This document shows, one piece after another, positions 2,736-57,441 of a stretch of DNA of 64,000 nucleotides (position 1 is its first letter; each line of letters starts with the position of its first letter). A program made the position numbers and the translations under genes. The stretch is from Minisyncoccota bacterium (GTDB lineage: Bacteria > Patescibacteriota > Minisyncoccia > Phycocordibacterales > UBA9973): contig JBAYHR010000003.1 of the NCBI GenBank assembly GCA_041666045.1, positions 2,208 through 66,207 of the forward strand. Direction: 5' to 3'. The notes under the pieces are model-generated. The model was not told where the DNA came from. It ran no database searches and saw only the letters and a program-made list of their open reading frames with translations.

Positions 2736-3863
2736 ATGGACAATCCGTTTAAAAAAATTTTTTCAAGTTCCAATTTGTTTGGAGATGGTTCGGGTGGTAG
2801 TGCTGTAGGAATAGACATCGGTTCTTCTGCTATCAAGATAGTTGAAATAAAAACAAAAGGGGGGAAAGCCATACTTGAAACTTATGGAATTGTATCACTT
2901 GGTTCTTATGCTGATCTTGATAATGGCCGTGTTACCAATCTTACATCTGATAAAGTTATAGAAGCTCTTAAGGAAGTTCTTAAACAATCAGGTGTGACTA
3001 CAACATCTGTTGCTCTTTCAATACCAGTTAAATCAAGTTTAATTTTTACCATTGAATTACCATCTCAAATTAAAGAAAGTGAAATAGCATCAATTATTCC
3101 AACAGAAGCCAGAAAATATATTCCAGTACCAATTACAGAAGTTTCACTTGATTATTTCGTTCTTCCCAAAAAGGAGGCTTCGTTTGAAGAAGCAAATAAT
3201 CCAGACATAAAAGTTACAGACCAAAATAAAACTGAAGTATTGGTTGTTGCCATACAAAATGAAGCTGTTTCAAAATACAGATCACTTGTTTCTGAGTGTT
3301 CTTTAGTGGCAGGATTTTTTGAAATTGAAATTTTCTCTTCTATTCGCGCAAATTTTGAACATGAACTCTCACCAGTTCTTTTAATGGATTTTGGCGCATC
3401 TTCCACGAAGCTTTCTATTGTTGAATTTGGCACTGTAAAAAGTTTTCATATTATCAATCGTGGTGGAGCAGATATAACTGATTCTATTTCTAAATCTTTA
3501 AGTATTCCTTTTTCCAAAGCTGAAGAAATGAAAAGAGAATTTGGACTTTTTGGTGATCCAGCGGAGAAAAGTTTGTCTGATATAATTAAAGTTCATACAG
3601 ACTATATCTTTTCAGAAACTAAAAATGTATTATTAGGGTATGAGAAGAAGTATGGCCGTGCTATTAGCAAGGTAATATTTTCTGGCGGGGGATCTCTCTT
3701 GAAAGGATTGAAAGAAGTAGCTGTTGATAATTTTAAAGCAGAGATAGAAGTTGGGCATCCTTTTTCTAAAGTTGGCGCGCCGGCATTTTTAGAGAAAGTT
3801 CTTTTAGCTACAGGTCCTGAATTTGCAATTGCCATAGGTTTAGCTTTGCGAAAATTACAATAA
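2736..3863 (+). CDS. pilM: type IV pilus assembly protein PilM (actin-like ATPase fold)
   Basis: N-terminal GIDIGSSAIKIVEIK motif and actin/FtsA-like fold signatures. First gene of the pilMNO-pilB cluster. Confidence 0.85.
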   Translation: MDNPFKKIFSSSNLFGDGSGGSAVGIDIGSSAIKIVEIKTKGGKAILETYGIVSLGSYADLDNGRVTNLTSDKVIEALKEVLKQSGVTTTSVALSIPVKSSLIFTIELPSQIKESEIASIIPTEARKYIPVPITEVSLDYFVLPKKEASFEEANNPDIKVTDQNKTEVLVVAIQNEAVSKYRSLVSECSLVAGFFEIEIFSSIRANFEHELSPVLLMDFGASSTKLSIVEFGTVKSFHIINRGGADITDSISKSLSIPFSKAEEMKREFGLFGDPAEKSLSDIIKVHTDYIFSETKNVLLGYEKKYGRAISKVIFSGGGSLLKGLKEVAVDNFKAEIEVGHPFSKVGAPAFLEKVLLATGPEFAIAIGLALRKLQ

Positions 3864-10242: not shown

Positions 10243-10713
10243 ATGAAGAATTTTAAGAAAGGTTTCACATTAATTGAATTGTTGGTGGTAGTTGCTATCA
10301 TCGGTATTCTAGCATCAGTTGTTTTAGCATCATTAAACTCAGCTCGTTCAAAAGGAGCTGATGCAGCAGTAAAAGCAAATATGGGAGGCATGAGGGCACA
10401 AGCTGAGCTTTATTATGACGATAATTCTAGTCGTTATAATGTTGATGGGACAACAGCTCTAGCGTCAACAGGTGCAACTGGGGCTGTTTGTGGCGTTACT
10501 ACTGGTATGTATAGTGATCCTAATATAACTCAAGCTATAGCACAAATAGCAACACAAATGGCAGGTACCTCTACAATGACTTGTACTACAGATGCTACTG
10601 GTCAATTATGGGCAGTATCTGTAACCGTACTTAAAGGTGCAGCAACTTCTTGGTGTGTAGACAATTCAGGTTGGTCAAAAGCTGGAACAGCAGCTGCTGG
10701 TGTTTGTGCTTAA
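10243..10713 (+). CDS. type IV major pilin (prepilin with class III signal peptide)
   Basis: MKNFKKG|FTLIELLVVVAIIGILASV prepilin peptidase site with Glu+5. Cys pairs in the C-terminal half. Own promoter and terminator. Confidence 0.85.
   Translation: MKNFKKGFTLIELLVVVAIIGILASVVLASLNSARSKGADAAVKANMGGMRAQAELYYDDNSSRYNVDGTTALASTGATGAVCGVTTGMYSDPNITQAIAQIATQMAGTSTMTCTTDATGQLWAVSVTVLKGAATSWCVDNSGWSKAGTAAAGVCA
10261..10323 (+). repeat. 63-nt segment shared (1 mismatch) between the two pilin genes, copy 1
   Basis: GGTTTCACATTAATTGAATTGTTGGTGGTAGTTGCTATCATCGGTATTCTAGCATCAGTTGTT. The second copy is at 10830-10892. Confidence 0.9.
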
Positions 10714-10735
10714 TAGTTAAAATTTAAATTTTAAA

Positions 10736-10766
10736 CAAAAACCACTTGAAAGTGGTTTTTGTTTTT
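10736..10766 (+). terminator. rho-independent terminator after pilin gene 1
   Basis: AAAAACCACTTGAAAGTGGTTTTTGTTTTT: GC stem followed by a T-run. Confidence 0.8.
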
Positions 10767-10808
10767 AGTATGTTATAATTAATTTAATTATTAAATAATA
10801 AGTTTATT

Positions 10809-11264
10809 ATGAAATTAAACAAAAATAGAGGTTTTACATTAATTGAATTGTTGGTGGTAGTTGCTATCATCGGTATTCTAGCATCAGTTGTTATGGCGTC
10901 ACTTAGTACCGCTAATAAAAAAAGTAAAGATGCTTCTGTTAAAGAAAGTATGAAGTCTATGATGTTGCAAGCAGAAATTCTTCGTGGGAGTGGTTCTACT
11001 TATCCAGTTGATATGTGTGTTTCATCTTTGGATTTTGAAAGACTTATAAAATCTATTAATAAACAGGTTCCAAGCGCTAATGCTGTGATTTGTAATTCTA
11101 GTACAACAGCTTGGGCAGCTGATGTTAAATTAAATGATGGAACTGTTTTTTGTGTAGACAGTGTTAGTTTTGTTGGTATTACACAACTTAGAAAAGGTTC
11201 AGCTATAGCTTGTAATCAGTCACAAGGGCAATATCCGCCAATACAACTACCTAACGAGATTTAA
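10809..11264 (+). CDS. type IV major pilin paralog
   Basis: MKLNKNRG|FTLIELLVVVAIIGILASV. The N-terminal coding segment is nucleotide-identical to the upstream pilin and the C-terminus is unrelated. Own promoter and terminator. Confidence 0.85.
   Translation: MKLNKNRGFTLIELLVVVAIIGILASVVMASLSTANKKSKDASVKESMKSMMLQAEILRGSGSTYPVDMCVSSLDFERLIKSINKQVPSANAVICNSSTTAWAADVKLNDGTVFCVDSVSFVGITQLRKGSAIACNQSQGQYPPIQLPNEI
10830..10892 (+). repeat. 63-nt segment shared between the two pilin genes, copy 2
   Basis: Identical to 10261-10323 except for one C/T difference. Confidence 0.9.
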
Positions 11265-11296
11265 TTAAGTTTATTTTGTTGTTTAAAATTTTTAGT

Positions 11297-11330
11297 AAAA
11301 ACCACTCTAATTAGAGTGGTTTTTGTTTTG
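11297..11330 (+). terminator. rho-independent terminator after pilin gene 2
   Basis: AAAAACCACTCTAATTAGAGTGGTTTTTGTTTTG. The stem is near-identical to the pilin-1 terminator. Confidence 0.8.
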
Positions 11331-11338
11331 CTTTCTTG

Positions 11339-11347
11339 TGATATAAT
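11339..11347 (+). promoter_or_regulatory. extended -10 element TGATATAAT upstream of pilD
   Basis: Exact 9-mer 29 nt upstream of the pilD ATG, immediately after the pilin-2 terminator. Confidence 0.5.
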
Positions 11348-11375
11348 TAGATAGCTTATTAATTAACCAATTTTT

Positions 11376-12167
11376 ATGACATCAATTTTTGCAATTATTT
11401 TTTTTGTGTTTGGTATTGTTATAGGTAGTTTTTTGAATGTTGTTATTTTTAGATATAATGTTCAAAGATCTTTTGGTGGCAGAAGCGGATGTATGACTTG
11501 TCAGAATAAACTTCACTGGTATGAACTTATTCCTTTATTTAGTTTTATTGCAATAAAAGGAAGATGTTTAAATTGTAAAACAAAAATATCAGTTCAATAT
11601 CCTTTAGTGGAATTGATAACAGGTATAATTTTTATGGGATTGTTTCTAAAATTCCAAGATATTTTTTATATGAATACTCTTGTATTTGCTGTAACTATGG
11701 CATTTTATGCCACAATGTTTTCTTTACTTATTGTTATAGCAGTATATGATTTGAGACATAAAATTATTCCAGATACGCTTGTTTTGGTTTTAGGAATTCT
11801 TGCTTTTTTAGGAATGTTTTTATTTTCTAGTTTTGGTTTTAATCCACATATTCCTTCTGTCTTAGAATTTTTAACGGGAATAATAGTAGCTCTCCCTTTT
11901 GCAATTATTTGGCTTGTATCAAAAGGAACTTGGATGGGGCTTGGAGACGCAAAACTAATGCTTGGGCTTGGTTGGCTTCTTGGACTTTCTCGTGTGCTTT
12001 CTGGTATGGTGGTTGCATTTTGGTCAGGTGCGATAATAGGACTTTTTCTTCTTGTTTTTTCAAAAAAGCACGGGATGAAAAGTGAAATTCCTTTTGCTCC
12101 ATTTTTGGTTTTAGGCGCAATTATAGCTTTTCTTTTTGAATTACATCTTTTCCCAGTTGGTTTTTAG
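11376..12167 (+). CDS. pilD: prepilin peptidase PilD (A24 family)
   Basis: N-terminal CxxC...CxxC zinc motif (CMTCQNK...CLNCKTK), polytopic membrane domain, and conserved Asp-containing motifs (AVYDLRHKIIPD, GLGDAKLM). Confidence 0.85.
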   Translation: MTSIFAIIFFVFGIVIGSFLNVVIFRYNVQRSFGGRSGCMTCQNKLHWYELIPLFSFIAIKGRCLNCKTKISVQYPLVELITGIIFMGLFLKFQDIFYMNTLVFAVTMAFYATMFSLLIVIAVYDLRHKIIPDTLVLVLGILAFLGMFLFSSFGFNPHIPSVLEFLTGIIVALPFAIIWLVSKGTWMGLGDAKLMLGLGWLLGLSRVLSGMVVAFWSGAIIGLFLLVFSKKHGMKSEIPFAPFLVLGAIIAFLFELHLFPVGF

Positions 12168-12168
12168 T

Positions 12169-12203
12169 ACATAACACATAACACATAACACATAACACGT
12201 AAC
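12169..12203 (+). repeat. heptanucleotide tandem repeat (ACATAAC)x5 abutting the minor-pilin start codon
   Basis: ACATAAC repeated four times exactly, plus ACGTAAC. The tract fills the whole pilD-to-minor-pilin intergenic space and ends at the ATG at 12204. Confidence 0.9.
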
Positions 12204-12911
12204 ATGAGATACAAAATAAAAAATTTAATAAATGCTATGCGCTGTGTGTTACGTGTTGCGCGCAATAAGGGTATGACTTATGTTGAGCTAATTGTTGTTT
12301 TGAGTATTTTTGCTATTATGTCTTCCATTGTTCTTTTTAATTATGGCAAGTTTCAAGCAAAAGTTGATATAAATAATTTAGCGAATGATATTGCTTTGAA
12401 AATAGTTCAAGCTCAAAAAGACGCTATGTCTGGAAAATTACCAACGCAAACTCCTTTTGTTTCTCCTTGGAAACCATCTTATGGAGTTTATTTTGATCCA
12501 ACAGTTCATTATAAATTTATTTATTTTACTGATTTATATAATTCTAAATATTATAATAGTTCTTCTTGTACTCCGCCTATTACCATAGAAAGTGGAGATT
12601 GTTTAGACGAAATAAACATAACAAAAGGGAATTATATATCTGAATTGAAAGTTTATCGCAATGATAATACGACAGAGATTTTAGCAACTAATTTATCTAT
12701 AACTTTTACAAGACCAAATTCTGGAGCATTTTTTGAATCTAATGGTTTACCGCTAGAAGATGTTTCTTATATTCAAATAACTATTACTTCTCCGCAATCT
12801 GTAAGCGCTAGAATTAAATTATATTCTTCAGGTAGAGTTGAAATATTACCAGGTCTAACACAGTCGTCCCTAAATGAAAGTGTTCCTATTGATAATACGC
12901 AAGTAAGTTAA
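12204..12911 (+). CDS. minor pilin / pseudopilin-like protein
   Basis: Prepilin-type leader ending KG|MTYVELIVVLSIFAIM with Glu+5. The start may be an internal Met. Confidence 0.7.
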   Translation: MRYKIKNLINAMRCVLRVARNKGMTYVELIVVLSIFAIMSSIVLFNYGKFQAKVDINNLANDIALKIVQAQKDAMSGKLPTQTPFVSPWKPSYGVYFDPTVHYKFIYFTDLYNSKYYNSSSCTPPITIESGDCLDEINITKGNYISELKVYRNDNTTEILATNLSITFTRPNSGAFFESNGLPLEDVSYIQITITSPQSVSARIKLYSSGRVEILPGLTQSSLNESVPIDNTQVS

Positions 12912-12912
12912 T

Positions 12913-13503
12913 ATGAAAAATAAATTTTTAAAAACAAAAAAAGGATTTACTATAATTGAAACAATGATAGCTGTTTCTCTTTTTTTAGTGATTGTTATGA
13001 TAGGTATGGGAGCGCTTTTAAACGCAAATTTAGTTCATAGAAAATCTCAAGATATGCGTTCCATAATTGATAATTTGAGTTTTATTATGGAAGAGATGTC
13101 TAGAAATTTAAGAACTGGATACAATTATCATTGTATTGATGATGGTTTTGTTACCAAAGTAGATTTAAATAGTTGCACTTCAGACGGAAAAGGAATATCT
13201 TTTAAATCCAGCTCGGGTGCTCAATGGGTTTATGCAATATTTCAAGATGGAAATATTAGTAGTATTAAAAAATCTGTTGATGGTGGAGCAACTTTTACAA
13301 CACTTACTTCTTCTGAAGTGATGATAGACACAAGTTCCAGTTTTTATGTGACTGGAGCAGAGCTTGGTGATGGCAAGCAACCGTTTGTTTTAATAAGATT
13401 GGTTGGGAAAATAACTTATAAAAATATTGATACGCCTTTTTCTTTACAAACATCAGTATCACAAAGATTAATAGATACAGGAGTTTCCTCAAATCCAAAT
13501 TAA
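12913..13503 (+). CDS. minor pilin / pseudopilin-like protein
   Basis: KKG|FTIIETMIAVSLFLVIVMIG prepilin motif. Confidence 0.75.
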   Translation: MKNKFLKTKKGFTIIETMIAVSLFLVIVMIGMGALLNANLVHRKSQDMRSIIDNLSFIMEEMSRNLRTGYNYHCIDDGFVTKVDLNSCTSDGKGISFKSSSGAQWVYAIFQDGNISSIKKSVDGGATFTTLTSSEVMIDTSSSFYVTGAELGDGKQPFVLIRLVGKITYKNIDTPFSLQTSVSQRLIDTGVSSNPN

Positions 13504-13543
13504 GATCAAATAATAATTCCACCAGTTAATTAATTATAAAAAT

Positions 13544-14062
13544 ATGATTAAATTATTAACACAAAAAAATAAAGGATTTACTTTAGTTGAAACATTGGTT
13601 GCTATCTCTATTTTTACTGTGTCAGTTTTAGCCTTAATGGTTATTTTAGGTCAAGGAATTTCTGATACAGGTTATGCAAAAAAGAAAATGACTGCCACTT
13701 ATTTGGCGCAAGAAGGTATTGAATATATGAGAAATATGCGAGATACATTTTCTATTTCTGGTTTGGGTTGGGATGAGTTTAAAAATAAATTAACACTTGC
13801 TTCATGTGATATTGGATGTTATTTTGACGCTGAAGTTCCCGATGAAGTTATTTCTTGTGAAAATGGTTCTTGTCATCATTTATTATATGATTCAGGAAAG
13901 TATAATTATTATTTTGGTGTTGATTCTGGATTTGTGCGTTCGGTAAGAGTTGATGGTGTCAATGAAGATGAAATAAAAATAACCTCCACTGTTTCTTGGG
14001 GTCAAGAATCTGGCGCATATTCCATTGTTTTTTCAGAAAGTTTATTTAATTGGATACAATAA
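13544..14062 (+). CDS. minor pilin / pseudopilin-like protein (PilV/GspJ-like)
   Basis: NKG|FTLVETLVAISIFTV prepilin motif. Confidence 0.75.
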   Translation: MIKLLTQKNKGFTLVETLVAISIFTVSVLALMVILGQGISDTGYAKKKMTATYLAQEGIEYMRNMRDTFSISGLGWDEFKNKLTLASCDIGCYFDAEVPDEVISCENGSCHHLLYDSGKYNYYFGVDSGFVRSVRVDGVNEDEIKITSTVSWGQESGAYSIVFSESLFNWIQ

Positions 14063-40525: not shown

Positions 40526-40834
40526 ATGTTAAAAATAAGATTACAGAGAATAGGTAGAAAAAATGATCCAGCGTTTCGTGCTGTTTTGACTGATTCAAAA
40601 AATAGTACAAAAAGCGGAAGATTTTTAGAAATAGTTGGTACTTATAATCCAAAAGCTGGGGAGACAAATTTTAAAACTGATAGAATAAAATATTGGGTTT
40701 CAAAAGGCGCTCAACTTTCTGATACTATGCACAATTTCTTAGTGCATCAAAAAGTTATAGAAGGGAAGAAGAAAAATGTATTGCCTAAGAAAAAGCCAAC
40801 TTTGAAAAGAAAGGAATTGAAAGCTAAGAAATAA
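40526..40834 (+). CDS. rpsP: 30S ribosomal protein S16 with K-rich tail
   Basis: MLKIRLQRIGRKNDPAFRAV... canonical S16 N-terminus. Confidence 0.9.
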   Translation: MLKIRLQRIGRKNDPAFRAVLTDSKNSTKSGRFLEIVGTYNPKAGETNFKTDRIKYWVSKGAQLSDTMHNFLVHQKVIEGKKKNVLPKKKPTLKRKELKAKK

Positions 40835-40908
40835 AAAGATATAATATACTGTAAGCAGTTGCTTTGGTCGGAACACTGCAATGATTAAAAATATTTATTC
40901 TGAACATT

Positions 40909-41244
40909 ATGCAAGACGCTGATAAAGAATTTCTAGAATATGTAGTAAAAGCTCTTGTTGACAATCCGAACGATGTAAAACTCGATCGTACTGTTGATGA
41001 AATGGGAGTGCTAATCAGTCTTACTGTAAATCCTGCCGATATGGGTAAAATCATCGGAAGAATGGGAAATACTGCAAAGGCTATCAGAACACTTCTAAGA
41101 GTTATTGGAATGAAGAATAATGCTCGCGTTAATCTAAAGATTAACGAACCAGAAGGAAGCACAAGACCTGAAAGAACAGAAAGTTCTTCTATGAGTTCAA
41201 CAAAAACTGTTGACCAAGCTATGGAAGATTTAAAAGGAATATAG
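40909..41244 (+). CDS. KH-domain RNA-binding protein (YlqC/UPF0109 family)
   Basis: KIIGRMGNTAKAIRTLL GxxG-type KH motif. Conserved position after rpsP. Confidence 0.8.
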   Translation: MQDADKEFLEYVVKALVDNPNDVKLDRTVDEMGVLISLTVNPADMGKIIGRMGNTAKAIRTLLRVIGMKNNARVNLKINEPEGSTRPERTESSSMSSTKTVDQAMEDLKGI

Positions 41245-41262
41245 TTTTTTAAAAAAAGAGCG

Positions 41263-41335
41263 AATACAAAAGTTTTCTGGCAAGCAAAAAGAATCCAGTG
41301 CTTGCAGGCAAAAATTTTTGTATTCGCTCTTTTTG
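41263..41335 (+). terminator. long nested hairpin downstream of the KH-protein gene (terminator or structured RNA)
   Basis: Outer stem AGAGCGAATACAAAA / TTTTGTATTCGCTCT encloses a second imperfect stem (CTGGCAAGC...GCTTGCAGG), followed by TTTTTG. Confidence 0.5.
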
Positions 41336-41401
41336 TTTGACAAATTGTACAATAAAAATTAAGATAAAAGAAAAAAGTATGAACATTAAAAATTAAAAAA
41401 T

Positions 41402-42148
41402 ATGATATTAGATCTAATTTTAAAGGGTAATTTTTATGAATTAAAAATTCATAGAAAATTCTTTCAAAATGAATCAATTCCACTTGAACTTTTTCAAGAA
41501 GAAAATCAACTGACAAAAAAATATTCTTATTTGGGAATTTTTCAAATAAAAGGTAATACTTTTGGTTTTGATGGTTGTTTTGTAAAACAAAAAGGTTCTA
41601 ATGATGAATATGTAATTTACAAATTTGATTTTCCAAAATCAGAAGATGATTATTATTTGGGAATGAGAAAAATGATGCTTACTATGTATTTATCTACTTA
41701 CTATGTTGTAGAACAAATGCATTATGCAAAAGAATTTTTCAATGACACAATTTGGGACGACCAAGCATTTTCTTTTGTCATTTTTGATGGTAATAGTGGT
41801 TTTACTGGTGGTTATGCTATTGGTGGTCAAATTTATTCTTGGATTAAAAGAAAGTTGCTTGCTCTTAATGAAGAAGACTTAATAAATTTAAATAAATATG
41901 TTGAGTTTGAGGTAAATAGAATAAGTAATTATTTTTTTAAAAAAGATGCTAAGTATAGTCAAATAACCATTACTCAAAACTCCATATTTATTCAGGTAAA
42001 TATGCAAGGTAGGTGGATTTCATGGACTAATTCAAGAGATATTTTTAAAAAAGAAGAATTTAGTTCTCACAACATTGACTTTCATAGTGATCAAGAATTA
42101 TGTTTTGTTGCTATTGTTGCTATAAATACGTGGCTAAGAGAACATTAA
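41402..42148 (+). CDS. hypothetical protein (no recognisable domain)
   Basis: 248-aa ORF with its own terminator. Sits where rimM is expected. Confidence 0.5.
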   Translation: MILDLILKGNFYELKIHRKFFQNESIPLELFQEENQLTKKYSYLGIFQIKGNTFGFDGCFVKQKGSNDEYVIYKFDFPKSEDDYYLGMRKMMLTMYLSTYYVVEQMHYAKEFFNDTIWDDQAFSFVIFDGNSGFTGGYAIGGQIYSWIKRKLLALNEEDLINLNKYVEFEVNRISNYFFKKDAKYSQITITQNSIFIQVNMQGRWISWTNSRDIFKKEEFSSHNIDFHSDQELCFVAIVAINTWLREH

Positions 42149-52948: not shown

Positions 52949-53069
52949 ATCCCGTTAGAAATCAAAAAGTTAAGTAATTTTTCACGGGATAAATAATTAT
53001 GGAGTATATAAAAGTCATTATTAATAAATTAACTACGGAGATCTAAAGATTTCCTATTTCTAACGGGAT
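52949..53069 (+). repeat. intergenic copy of the CCCGTTAGAAAT inverted-repeat element, with the right arm overlapping the rpoD start codon
   Basis: Perfect 14-bp arms ATCCCGTTAGAAAT / ATTTCTAACGGGAT, 93 nt apart. A partial extra right-arm copy (TCACGGGAT) lies inside. Confidence 0.75.
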
Positions 53070-54279
53070 GAAAAAAATAAAAGTAAAAAAAGTAAATAAG
53101 AAACCAAAAACAAAAGCTAAAAAAATTGTTAAAAAAGCTAAAAAAAGTATTAAGAAAGTAAAAAAAGTTTTATCAAAGAAAGATAATAATAAAAAATTAA
53201 CCGCAGCAGAAAAAAAAGTTAAAGAATTTACACATTTAGCAGATGAGCTTATAGAAAAGGGACGTAAAAGAGGATTTATCATCTATGATGAAATATTAAA
53301 AACTTTTCCTGATATTGAAAATAATATTTTATTTTTAGATGAACTTTATGAGAAATTTAGTGTTGTTGGTGTTGATGTTTTAGAAGGAGGTAATTTGCTT
53401 AATCTTGATAATGATATTAATGATAAGGATTTAAATAAATCAACTATTCATGATTCCATACAAATGTATCTTAAAGAAATCGGTCAATATCCGCTTATTC
53501 ATGCCAGTGACGAAAAAGATTTAGCAAAACGTATAGAAAATGGAGATGAAGAAGCAAAAAATTTACTTGCTCGCGCAAACTTACGTTTAGTTGTTTCAAT
53601 TGCAAAAAAATATGTTGGCAGAAGCGCCAATCTAAGTCTGCTTGATTTAATTCAAGAAGGGAATTTGGGTTTATTTAAGGCTGTTGAAAAGTTTGATTGG
53701 ACAAAAGGATATAAATTTTCCACTTATGCCACTTGGTGGATTCGTCAGTCTATAACTCGCGCATTAGCTGATCAATCTAGAACTATTCGTATTCCAGTGC
53801 ATATGGTTGAAACTATTTCAAAATATAAACAAGTGCACAGAAGACTTAGTCAGGATTTAGGCAGAGAGCCATTAGCAGAAGAAATTGCAACTGAAATGGG
53901 AATACCAGTTGAAAAAATTCATGTTATAGAAAATATAAGTCAGGAAACAATTTCACTTGAACAACCTATTGGAGATGATGACGATAAATCAACATTAGAG
54001 AATTTTATTCCAGATGATAAAATTTTGCGTCCAGATCAAGATTCTTCTCGCAGGATTCTTTCTGATCAAATTCGTGAAGTTTTAAATGAACTTAATCCAA
54101 AAGAAAGAAAAATTCTTGAAATGCGTTATGGCTTGATTGATGGTATACAGCATACATTAGAGAGAGTAGGGGAAGAATTTGGAGTTACTCGTGAGCGTAT
54201 TCGTCAGATTGAAGCAAAGGTGCACGAAAAACTTCGTCATCATGAAAAAATCGCTCGCTTAAAAAATTATTTTGATTAA
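53068..54279 (+). CDS. rpoD: RNA polymerase sigma factor RpoD-like (sigma-70 family, group 1/2) with K-rich N-terminus
   Basis: Region 2 ([24 protein letters not shown]). Region 3. Region 4 ([26 protein letters not shown]). Position after dnaG. Confidence 0.9.
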
Positions 54280-54363
54280 ATAAAAAGATTGTGAATTAGA
54301 CTACGAATTTGTTATAATTTACTTATAAATTTTTTATGTATGAACAAAATTTAACCACAAATC

Positions 54364-54382
54364 GAGAGAGAGAGAGAGAGAG
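54364..54382 (+). repeat. (GA)9 dinucleotide microsatellite upstream of the large surface-protein gene
   Basis: GAGAGAGAGAGAGAGAGAG lies 24 nt upstream of the TTG at 54406. Confidence 0.9.
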
Positions 54383-54405
54383 TAGCTTCAGCTCTAAAAA
54401 TATTT

Positions 54406-57400
54406 TTGGGTTGTTTTTTTATAATAATTTTTATTTTTGGATTGGTTGTTTTAACAAAAGTAAACGCTGATGCCGATCAAATATATTTGCATTATGCAGA
54501 TAATACAGCTGGAGCAAAAATTTTAGATATTTATCAAAAAAAAGCTAATGCTGGTACCAATTCTGATAAATGGTTCCGTTGGGAGTTTTTTCAATATACT
54601 AGTGACGCTTGGGATTTACAACAAAACTCGGTTGGTCATGTTTCTACCTTAGATCTACAAACAACTAGAGATGACTTTACTTATGTGAATGGTTCTGGCG
54701 ATGCAGGAACTTGGACTGATGTTACTGTTGGTAATATTGTGGCTAAACGAAGAATCTCTTCAACAAACTATGAACCATACAGTGCTTATGCCACCTATAC
54801 AGCTACTGATAACTATAATGATGTCTATTTAGGTGTTCATATGGTTGGTACTGTAGGTGGTGTGATAAGGGTAAAAATTAATGGTGTTGTTTCGACAAAT
54901 AATTTAGTTGGGTTAAATACCACTATGGGGTTAAATACAAATGGGGAATTCGACGAGGGACATTATTTAACAGACAATGTTAATCCTCGATGGATTCATA
55001 TTGCTACAAATATTAACACTGGTGATGTAATTACAATTGAAGTAAAAGGTAGTACTGACGCACACAATAGACATGACATCACTGGATTGAAATTATATAA
55101 GGATGCAAATCCAGGTGATGCCAATTGGGTCTATTTAAAATCTCATGATGTAATGGATAATCCAAGTGAACAATATGTGGCGATCAGTGGTAATATCCCC
55201 GGTCAAGCTGTTGGATATAAATTTGGAATTGCTCATGGACACGAATATAACGCGGCCATTACCATTAATTTAGATGGCACTGCTTATGTTTTAGATTCTG
55301 ATTTGTCATACAACCAAGTTATTATTGGAAATACTTTAGACATTACTGGCATTTCCACTTGTTATGGAGATACAAAAACTACTGATGATTTTGGTACTTT
55401 AACTCGAGCTATGGTATTTGAGGGGAATACTTTAATTGAATCGTGGGCATTAGCTTTTACTACCGATTTTCAAGTTGCAAATGTTTATACTACAATGTGG
55501 CCAGCCGATTATAGCACCGATAAATTATTTCGCTATGTAAAATTTAGTGATAATTTCGTTGTTGACCTTCCGAATGATGGGGTTGTTTTTCCAATGCAAG
55601 TTGGCCCAAGTGTTGCTAGTGGACGAATGGAATATTTTGGTGGAACAGCAAACTTAAAAGTTACCATACAAACTACCGCCCCATTGCAAGAAGAATGGAT
55701 TACAAATAATGGGCAAAAAAGTTATTTTCGTGGTTCTACAAATCACTATGTTGGTTCGTTCCATAATGGTGATTCTTTTAGCAGTACTGCTACTATCACT
55801 TTAAATTACGAAACTCCAACTGATGTAGATTGGTCTGGTAAAACTTTATATATTGCAAAAAATAAAACGATAAGTACGAATGATGATTTTGTTCCTTTTG
55901 ATGGTAAGGGTTTAGTAACAAAGTTTATGGCAGGTAGTAATCTAGGACTGACCTTTAATAATTTTGCACCAACAAAAACATATTTTACAAGTCAAGATGA
56001 TGACAGTATTGGAATTGAGGAACGAAGTTCTGACCACTCTCCAGCGAAAGAGGATTGGGCAGGAATTTCGGTGAGTGGTGTGGCTAGTGCTACTCATAAT
56101 ATATTTTCTTATGGTACAACAGGTTTAACTTTAATTGGTAATGCTAATGCATATAATAATAGTTTTAATCAAAACACCACAGGTATTAATGCCTCATCAG
56201 GTTCAACAGTAAGAAATAATGCGTTGGTAAATATTACAACTTATACAACTGGTGCAGGGGATTTTGATTACAATTATTTTTCAGGAAATACAGAAACTCA
56301 TGGTAAATCAGGTGATCCTTTATTTATTAATGCTACTAATGCGAATTTTTCACTACAATCAACCTCTCTTGCAATTAACTCAGGAACCAACGTTTCTCTC
56401 ACTAGTGATTATTTAGGAAACCCAATAGTAGGACTTCCAGATATAGGAGCATACGAATTCCAAGCTCCAACAGTACCAACTTCACTTTCTCAATACAAAT
56501 CAGATGGAACAACAGCAATAATTTCTGGAACTTTCACGAATGAAAATAGTGTTGTTTTGAAATTCAATATGTCTTCATCAGAATATAATTCATCTGATTC
56601 ACTAACTCCACAAGTCGAGATTCAAGAATTAGGTACTGCATTTACGAACATTGTTACTAACTCCGGAGATGCGGTTGCTTACTCAGGTTCGGGAGTAACA
56701 GGAACAGTTTTGGTTACTGGCTTAACGAGTGGCAAAACATATCATTGGCAAGCAAGAATAAGTAATTCGGCTGGACAAAGTTCCTGGGTTGCCATGGGAG
56801 GTAGTCCAGATTTTCAAGTTGATACAACAATTCCAGTAATTACCTTACTTGGGGAAAGTTCAATTACTTTAACAAATGAACAATCATACACAGATGCAGG
56901 AGCTACAGCGATAGACAACATTGATGGAGACATTACTTCTTCCATTATCACAGTTAATCCAGTAGACGTAACTGTACCAGGAACATATACTATAACTTAC
57001 AATGTTACAGATGCTACTTTAAACGTAGCCACAGAAGTAACAAGAACAGTACGAGTGGAAATTTCATCAAGTACTGGTAGTAGCGGTTATCTTTCAGGTT
57101 CCTATCTCCTAGGTTATTTACCAAAAGCAATATCAACTATAACTTCAAAAATAGAATCAACAACTTTAATAACAACTTCAACAATTTCTGAAATACAAAA
57201 AGTAACAAAAGATTTAAAGTTTGGAATGACAAACAAAGATGTAAAAACACTGCAACTATTTTTAATTAAGCAAAATAAAGGGTCAAACGCAAAAGCTTTA
57301 GCAAAATATAATGGAACTAATTATTTTGGAAAGTTAACAAGATCTGCTTTAGCAGAATGGCAGAAAGCAAATAAAGTAATTCCTTCATATGGATACTTTG

Positions 57401-57441
57401 GAAAAATAACCAGAGCGAAGATTAAATTGTTGAATTTGTAA
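54406..57441 (+). CDS. large secreted surface protein: signal peptide, parallel beta-helix repeats, Ig-like/FN3-like modules, C-terminal PG_binding_1 domain
   Basis: Hydrophobic N-terminus with VNA|DA. Beta-helix-type repeats (NIFSYGTTGLTLIGNANAYNNSF..., DIGAYEF). The Ig-like module resembles DUF5011 (PVITLLGESSITLTNEQSYTDAGATAIDNIDGDIT). C-terminal peptidoglycan-binding-like repeat (LQLFLIK...GKLTRSALAEWQKAN). TTG start. Confidence 0.7.
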   Translation: MGCFFIIIFIFGLVVLTKVNADADQIYLHYADNTAGAKILDIYQKKANAGTNSDKWFRWEFFQYTSDAWDLQQNSVGHVSTLDLQTTRDDFTYVNGSGDAGTWTDVTVGNIVAKRRISSTNYEPYSAYATYTATDNYNDVYLGVHMVGTVGGVIRVKINGVVSTNNLVGLNTTMGLNTNGEFDEGHYLTDNVNPRWIHIATNINTGDVITIEVKGSTDAHNRHDITGLKLYKDANPGDANWVYLKSHDVMDNPSEQYVAISGNIPGQAVGYKFGIAHGHEYNAAITINLDGTAYVLDSDLSYNQVIIGNTLDITGISTCYGDTKTTDDFGTLTRAMVFEGNTLIESWALAFTTDFQVANVYTTMWPADYSTDKLFRYVKFSDNFVVDLPNDGVVFPMQVGPSVASGRMEYFGGTANLKVTIQTTAPLQEEWITNNGQKSYFRGSTNHYVGSFHNGDSFSSTATITLNYETPTDVDWSGKTLYIAKNKTISTNDDFVPFDGKGLVTKFMAGSNLGLTFNNFAPTKTYFTSQDDDSIGIEERSSDHSPAKEDWAGISVSGVASATHNIFSYGTTGLTLIGNANAYNNSFNQNTTGINASSGSTVRNNALVNITTYTTGAGDFDYNYFSGNTETHGKSGDPLFINATNANFSLQSTSLAINSGTNVSLTSDYLGNPIVGLPDIGAYEFQAPTVPTSLSQYKSDGTTAIISGTFTNENSVVLKFNMSSSEYNSSDSLTPQVEIQELGTAFTNIVTNSGDAVAYSGSGVTGTVLVTGLTSGKTYHWQARISNSAGQSSWVAMGGSPDFQVDTTIPVITLLGESSITLTNEQSYTDAGATAIDNIDGDITSSIITVNPVDVTVPGTYTITYNVTDATLNVATEVTRTVRVEISSSTGSSGYLSGSYLLGYLPKAISTITSKIESTTLITTSTISEIQKVTKDLKFGMTNKDVKTLQLFLIKQNKGSNAKALAKYNGTNYFGKLTRSALAEWQKANKVIPSYGYFGKITRAKIKLLNL

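Follow-up and report, generated by a model that had tools for sequence, protein, structure and literature searches.

A (GA)9.5 tract as a probable slippage frame switch in the 5' coding region of a surface-protein gene of a Minisyncoccota bacterium

In the 64 kb of DNA analysed here (the window, with a GC content of about 31%, to whose positions all coordinates refer unless a locus is named), a long open reading frame (ORF) for a putative surface protein is annotated from a TTG codon a short distance 3' of a perfect GA repeat. The database entry for the identical protein reads 'MAG: DUF5011 domain-containing protein [Candidatus Paceibacterota bacterium]' (MAG, metagenome-assembled genome), and Candidatus Paceibacterota is placed in NCBI under the phylum Minisyncoccota (Candidate Phyla Radiation (CPR)/Patescibacteria). 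The locus raises the question of where translation of this gene begins and what part the repeat plays in it. An earlier note on this DNA had proposed a candidate phase-variation switch, with the gene either OFF or low and switchable or expressed from the TTG. The switchable alternative gains support from the in-frame architecture of a homologous gene and from the mixture of reading frames among relatives, from which we infer the switching itself. The GA tract is probably a slipped-strand-mispairing frame switch in the 5' coding region of a gene for a secreted, presumably wall-associated surface protein.

The tract consists of nine GA units and a further G, (GA)9.5, and occupies 19 nucleotides (nt) at 54364-54382 on the plus strand (GAGAGAGAGAGAGAGAGAG). 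It is the sole dinucleotide repeat of more than five units across the 64 kb, and all window matches to a GA pattern of 13 nt with up to one mismatch, of which 0.06 were expected from shuffled sequences, fall within it. Given this uniqueness and the low number of matches expected in the shuffles, chance does not account for the tract. It encodes alternating Glu and Arg in each frame and is the frame-setting element of the locus: its 2-nt unit is not divisible by three, it is placed between a start codon and the main part of the ORF, and its 19 perfect nt exceed the approximately six or more perfect dinucleotide units at which slippage is expected.

The candidate true start is the ATG at 54336-54338 (+), which at the current tract length is one frame off the 1011-codon ORF. 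As had been pointed out earlier, reading from this ATG passes the tract without stops in another frame; the result is a 44-codon ORF (54336-54470, +), the predicted OFF product, which ends at the TGA at 54468-54470. An overlapping second ATG in the frame of the long ORF (54340-54354, +) was likewise correctly described as stopping ahead of the repeat, as it encodes MNKI followed by a TAA at 54352-54354. Since ATG 54340 shares the frame of the body at the current length and is blocked by this TAA at codon 5, the OFF state rests on the tract length together with TAA 54352. The third frame is closed directly 3' of the tract by a TAG (54383-54385, +), at which the ORF from ATG 54336 would end after loss of one unit or gain of two. 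The long frame is open from 54355, has TTG 54406 as its first canonical start and ends at 57441. The earlier statement that it holds no in-frame ATG was imprecise, given that 11 are present, the first of them being codon 146 (nt 54841), deep in the conserved mature domain. The predicted fusion of ATG 54336 to the long ORF was reproduced in silico, where gain of one GA unit yields an ORF of 1035 amino acids (aa) and loss of two units an ORF of 1033 aa, both beginning MYEQNLTTNRER; the remaining tract lengths from -3 to +3 units yield peptides of 15-46 aa only. The predicted ON form in the window reads MYEQNLTTN-RERERER-VASALK...

The family to which the protein belongs is rare: its N-terminal domain was found in approximately 15 of 1.84 billion cluster representatives. 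Sixteen distinct loci (L numbers below) were recovered as DNA, and the relatives compared are diverged orthologues with 42-61% identity. In L017 (P0030; 48% identical, from a Paceibacterota MAG) the gene starts at ATG 4001, the homologue of ATG 54336, with ATGTATGAT (MYDKN...), its (GA)11.5 tract is in frame, corresponding to the ON state, and the product reads MYDKNTQISTAET-RERERER-VNSP (MYDKNTQISTAETRERERERVNSP), followed by the hydrophobic core and the mature domain. L017 and the window have in common the overlapping double start ATGTATGA (MY[DE]xN...), and the N-terminus with RE repeats is as in the predicted window ON form. Equivalent pure GA tracts with the common flanks AATC/ATCC...GTA are present in the window, L017, L007, L012 and L018, and in L017, L007 and L012 a TAA stands where the window has the TAG at 54383-54385. 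A tract of (GA)6.5 behind GAATC is in frame in L018 (P0034; ON: MLKESRERELIED), and a G9 run is in frame, and thus ON, in L011. The (GA)7.5 tract of L007 is out of frame and would be ON at +1 unit (ATG 2763/2802) or -1 unit (ATG 2786). In L013 (P0006), an (AAGA)6.5 tract directly 3' of the ATG is out of frame and would be ON at -1 unit; this ATG abuts the opening point of the long frame, and the annotated GTG start lies inside the hydrophobic core. A further (GA)7.5 tract was found in L012, in an orphan leader upstream of a family gene with an ordinary start. With the window counted ((GA)9.5, out of frame, OFF), pure 5' repeats are therefore present at seven loci, three of them in frame, three one unit off and one in the orphan leader. 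The comparison of tract length in relatives, which the earlier note had named as a check, thus gave GA tracts of 6.5-11.5 units with both in-frame and off-frame alleles, between diverged orthologues only.

A census of 160.6 kb (the window and the 16 loci) gave seven repeats that contain G (five GA, one AAGA and one G9), each of them located at the 5' end of a family gene; the other repeats were five A9/T9 runs and one heptamer array. Pure repeats that vary in length and motif at one position, with mixed frames and intact ORFs, make up the pattern by which contingency loci are usually recognised in comparisons of relatives. A difference of 4 aa in length between P0034 and P0174 was considered as tract variation and rejected, as it reflects a different choice of start codon.

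The homologues also bear on the position of the start codon. Among the repeat-free homologues with a signal peptide, all nine start with ATG, and eight of the nine have an N-terminal region containing Lys or Arg. The public start calls for the identical protein are TTG 54406 (IMG, NCBI) or TTG 54442 (Logan, ENA); translation from the former leaves out the Lys/Arg N-terminal region, and translation from the latter leaves out the hydrophobic core. Moreover, an x[KR][IV]F block is found N-terminal to the hydrophobic core in the window (ALKIF), P0002 (MPKIF), L013 (SRQIF), L007 (SSRIF), L012 (TRRVF) and L011 (FKRIF). Since this block is conserved upstream of TTG 54406, the stretch from the tract to the TTG is evidently translated in the long frame. 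On this comparative evidence from homologue starts, the tract appears to lie inside the real 5' coding region; its earlier description as upstream of the gene holds relative to the annotated TTG and fails by comparison with the homologues. The annotated TTG 54406 start is a gene-caller fallback. For annotation, this means that gene callers set such starts at internal TTG or GTG codons, as in the window and L013, and thereby truncate the signal peptide.

Among the ORFs of at least 150 aa in the window, 44 of 48 have an ATG no more than seven codons from the first possible start, and the surface-protein gene belongs to the four exceptions. Another ORF with an anomalous start was observed at 40824-41516 on the minus strand; its 230 codons begin with TTG and hold no ATG for 154 codons, and it overlaps the start of an ORF at 41402-42148 (+).

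The best promoter at the locus is a sigma-70-like element at 54289-54318 (+), with a -35 box TTGTGA, an 18-nt spacer and an extended -10 box TGTTATAAT (10 of 12 consensus matches, with the TG present). It is located 17 nt ahead of ATG 54336 and 87 nt ahead of TTG 54406. Other window genes carry an element of the TGTTATAAT type 11-29 nt ahead of their ATG and almost never have a Shine-Dalgarno motif. A second -10-like hexamer, TATAAA, is found at 54324-54329, 6 nt 5' of ATG 54336, and may give rise to a leaderless-type start. The upstream neighbour is rpoD (53068-54279; sigma-70 regions 1.1 to 4). No intrinsic terminator was predicted between rpoD and the surface-protein gene, the leader had no Rfam match up to E = 1, and its RNA structure was not significant (z = +0.64). 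A transcriptional switch with the repeat in the promoter spacer was ruled out, as the tract begins at 54364, downstream of the best promoter; stop-codon reassignment or read-through of TAA 54352 was ruled out as well, as the window genes are normal under translation table 11. In the repeat-free family members L015 (2820-2840) and L016 (2985-3003), the ATG follows 6-7 nt past an extended -10 box (TGGTATAAT and TGGTATTAT, respectively), a spacing that points to mRNAs with little or no leader in these organisms.

The annotated coding sequence (54406-57441, +; 1011 aa) represents the body of the protein. Ahead of it, and overlapping its beginning, the remainder of the signal peptide in the long frame (54382-54468, +) comprises V-ASALK with a basic residue, the hydrophobic core GCFFIIIFIFGLVVL and TKVNA; from the alignment of homologues, cleavage is predicted before DADQ (54469). 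A lipoprotein signal motif at LGC was ruled out, as no hydrophobic core could be read from the sequence ahead of it. The N-terminal region of approximately 650 aa is family-specific and all-beta, without Pfam or PDB sequence match; its AlphaFold model (pLDDT 71) gave weak matches to CBM35-like and galactose-mutarotase-like beta-sandwiches, so that a glycan-binding role is possible. A choice-of-anchor-Q segment (aa 646-686) and an Ig-like DUF5011 / Bact_surface_Ig-like domain (PF16403, aa 812-884; 66.5 bits against a cut-off of 27, E = 2e-18) follow, and the C-terminus (aa 943-1004) has a weak PG_binding_1 (peptidoglycan-binding-like) match below cut-off. Judging from the signal-peptide-like N-terminus, the Ig-like domain, the anchor-Q segment and the weak PG_binding_1 match, the product is probably a secreted, wall-associated and surface-exposed protein that would face the environment. 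The 1011 codons of the body are uninterrupted, and all of the approximately 130 family-invariant positions are retained.

The following course of events is proposed. Transcription would proceed from the promoter at 54289-54318, and translation would start at ATG 54336 behind a short leader without Shine-Dalgarno sequence, the usual arrangement in this genome. The ribosome would then read MYEQNLTTN, the (Arg-Glu)n encoded by the tract, V-ASALK, the hydrophobic core and the VNA cleavage site. At 9.5 units it would leave the tract in the wrong frame and stop at TGA 54468, the gene being OFF or weakly expressed from TTG 54406. Slippage during replication that adds one GA unit or deletes two would produce the pre-protein of 1035 or 1033 aa, the ON state. 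Tract length would accordingly vary within the population, and selection for switching may come from host contact or from evasion of phages or predators.

Several observations weigh against a frame switch at this locus. No length polymorphism was found: the window and the assemblies ERZ27249449, SRR6484324 and SRR18595301 are identical over 4.4-9 kb, each with 9.5 units, although these four assemblies represent the same clone at consensus level and are compatible with low-frequency variants. P0029 led to three contigs, all identical to the window, and no contig was found for P0001 and P0028. Both NCBI MAG proteins are of the 1011-aa form, and exact ON proteins of 1033, 1035 or 1037 aa are absent from a collection of 15 billion proteins. 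Two Logan contigs pass through the tract unbroken, and therefore any minority length is not abundant. Scans of metagenome and genome contigs with exact DNA flanks and variable tract length revealed no close strain with another length. The majority state is thus OFF wherever the clone was sampled. Furthermore, the product from TTG 54406 retains the hydrophobic core and the VNA cleavage site, so that some expression from this codon in the OFF frame is possible, at most weakly, and L019 is frameshifted without any repeat, which indicates that plain decay also occurs in the family. In this locus (L019 1400-1620, P0031) the reading frame changes between the signal peptide (FFSTFSFVLPAKKAKAADNPVYLQH) and the mature domain, and their junction is free of repeats; the copy has either decayed or been misassembled. 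A (TA)5.5 run is found approximately 60 nt upstream.

As a side observation on the contigs, position 1 of both L002 and L003 corresponds to window position 54192; these two independent Logan contigs start at the same base, in the conserved region 4 of rpoD, and their shared start is probably a branch of the de Bruijn graph caused by co-occurring relatives and not by the GA tract.

The identical tract length in every assembly and the public annotations can also be read as constitutive expression from TTG 54406 (or 54442), with the tract as a relic in a 5' untranslated leader and without a current role. The retained core and cleavage site agree with this explanation, and in a genome that is not reliant on Shine-Dalgarno sequences the AT-rich context might permit initiation. 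It is nevertheless considered unlikely, because the product would be without the basic N-terminal region, unlike that of eight of the nine repeat-free signal-peptide homologues, or, from TTG 54442, without the hydrophobic core. Non-ATG starts are also nearly absent in the window, the promoter adjoins ATG 54336 and not the TTG, and the residues 5' of the TTG are conserved as protein. Finally, a relic would decay by point mutation, whereas the tract is perfect here and in five other GA/AAGA loci.

An uninterrupted body of 1011 codons in a genome of 31-34% GC, with every family-invariant residue kept, argues against pseudogenisation, according to which the original start was ATG 54340, a TAA arose in its fifth codon and the tract lost its frame with ATG 54336, without any reversible switching. 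The blocked in-frame ATG with its homology to the start in L012, the non-repeat frameshift in L019 and the orphaned leader remnant in L012 would fit such decay; yet the repeat is free of interruptions, a change of one unit is enough to recover the ORF, and the one-unit-off state also occurs in the intact genes L007 and L013, which makes this course very improbable. Least probable is recoding, in which +1 ribosomal frameshifting or slippage of RNA polymerase on the purine tract would join ATG 54336 to the long frame in some of the events and give constant low-level expression. The window, L007 and L013 do have the same offset (ATG in frame 0, body in +1), correctable by a +1 shift, but three loci on one of two possible offsets are not statistically meaningful, and L017, L018 and L011 are in frame without a shift. 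The conserved out-of-frame layout and the defined shift site of a prfB-like programmed +1 frameshift were thus not found, a slippery site accompanied by a stop or stimulator is not apparent, and the leader showed neither significant structure nor an Rfam match. The slippage switch is the favoured explanation.

The second ATG differs in its effect among the family members. ATG 54340 is homologous to the start ATGAACAAAATTT in L012 (identical at all 13 nt), whose fifth codon is TTG, and the equivalent second ATG of L017 (4005) is open through the tract. L017 and L007 are each ON in two of the three classes of tract length, and the window in one. In L012, the orphan leader (460-985) comprises a promoter TTGACA-17-TACAAT, then ATGAACAAAATTT..AATC(GA)7.5 and a TAA (MNKILARIERERE, then the stop); in another frame it runs into a signal-peptide-like remnant (RERVNGTRRVFVFLTFPLKL, then a stop). 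The remnant is followed by an intrinsic terminator, a gene for a membrane protein of 111 aa and then the family gene with its own ordinary start, a layout that suggests past rearrangement or duplication of 5' cassettes.

Additional observations were made at other loci and in the window. In L007, perfect palindromes (2645-2675, 2893-2926 and approximately 3014-3048; e.g. GTGCGGTTTTTTCAC-TCGA-GTGAAAAAACCGCAC) lie inside the open 5' extension from the tract to the hydrophobic core, and their TTCACTCGAGTGAA core also forms the terminator of the upstream gene; they look like insertions of small palindromic repeat elements that keep the frame open. A small hairpin is present at the same relative position in L017 (4105-4123). 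The family member in L014 (780-2819, P0005) has no signal peptide (start MSTTFLHYADD), possesses an AAGGAG ribosome-binding site, and is encoded on a contig with 48% GC and many small genes, a different, possibly phage-like setting for the same N-terminal domain. In the window, a heptamer array (ACATAAC x4 + ACGTAAC) at 12169-12204 occupies all 36 nt of the spacer that separates a prepilin-peptidase gene (11376-12167) from a minor-pilin-like gene (12204-12911), inside a block of type IV pilin genes (10243-14062, N_methyl motifs). It could be a second repeat-type switch that acts on spacing or translational coupling.

CPR/Patescibacteria are mostly uncultivated episymbionts, whose surface proteins presumably mediate host contact. 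To our knowledge, little is known of surface variation in CPR bacteria beyond diversity-generating retroelements. If the interpretation is correct, these ultra-small episymbionts would stochastically switch a wall-anchored and probably glycan-binding protein, with consequences for host attachment or for evasion of phages and predators, and a conserved switch would add classical pathogen-style bet-hedging to the CPR/Patescibacteria. Lineages would have exchanged the repeat motif (GA, AAGA, polyG), and in some members the overlapping ATGs (ATGTATGA) in different frames would make two of three tract lengths ON. Tract length in metagenomic reads would further provide a simple marker for ON and OFF subpopulations in situ. 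Full-text literature searches yielded no paper linking repeat-based phase variation to CPR/Patescibacteria. Judged from the sequences, the mechanism would be classical and the host lineage new for such a switch, for which no report was found. There is a somewhat better than even chance that this is the first documented repeat-based contingency locus in the CPR, ancient and family-wide, with a hypermutable purine repeat kept in the leader across more than 50% protein divergence.

In Helicobacter pylori, the gene oipA (hopH) carries CT repeats in the region coding for the signal peptide, and the repeat number sets the frame, so that On and Off strains exist (PMC10564699). Together with sabA and babA of the same species, it is the closest known counterpart of the locus described here: the repeat is CT, i.e. 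GA on the other strand, it is situated in the 5' signal-peptide region of a surface-protein gene, and ON and OFF alleles differ in unit number, in the present case among family members. In H. pylori the variation is documented within the species and within hosts, whereas the present family shows it only from one diverged orthologue to another (42-61% identity). The host here is an uncultivated member of the CPR/Paceibacterota, the tract lies in a long charged extension ahead of the hydrophobic core, and the motif varies by family member (GA, AAGA, G). Contingency loci are also known from Haemophilus and Neisseria (lic1 with CAAT, opa with CTCTT) and from Campylobacter (polyG tracts). As in these loci, a repeat whose unit is not 3 nt follows shortly after the start codon of a surface-structure gene and slippage would shift the frame; L013 with its tetranucleotide and L011 with its polyG run match these very subtypes. 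Haemophilus, Neisseria and Campylobacter carry many such loci per genome, whereas one was found here in 64 kb, plus the heptamer array at 12169. Promoter-spacer switches, such as the (TA)n repeats of H. influenzae hif and Mycoplasma mycoides Vmm, have the repeat between -35 and -10 and act on transcription. The present locus resembles them in having a dinucleotide repeat near the promoter of a surface-protein gene and differs from them in that the tract is located 46 nt past the -10 box and is translated in the ON homologues.

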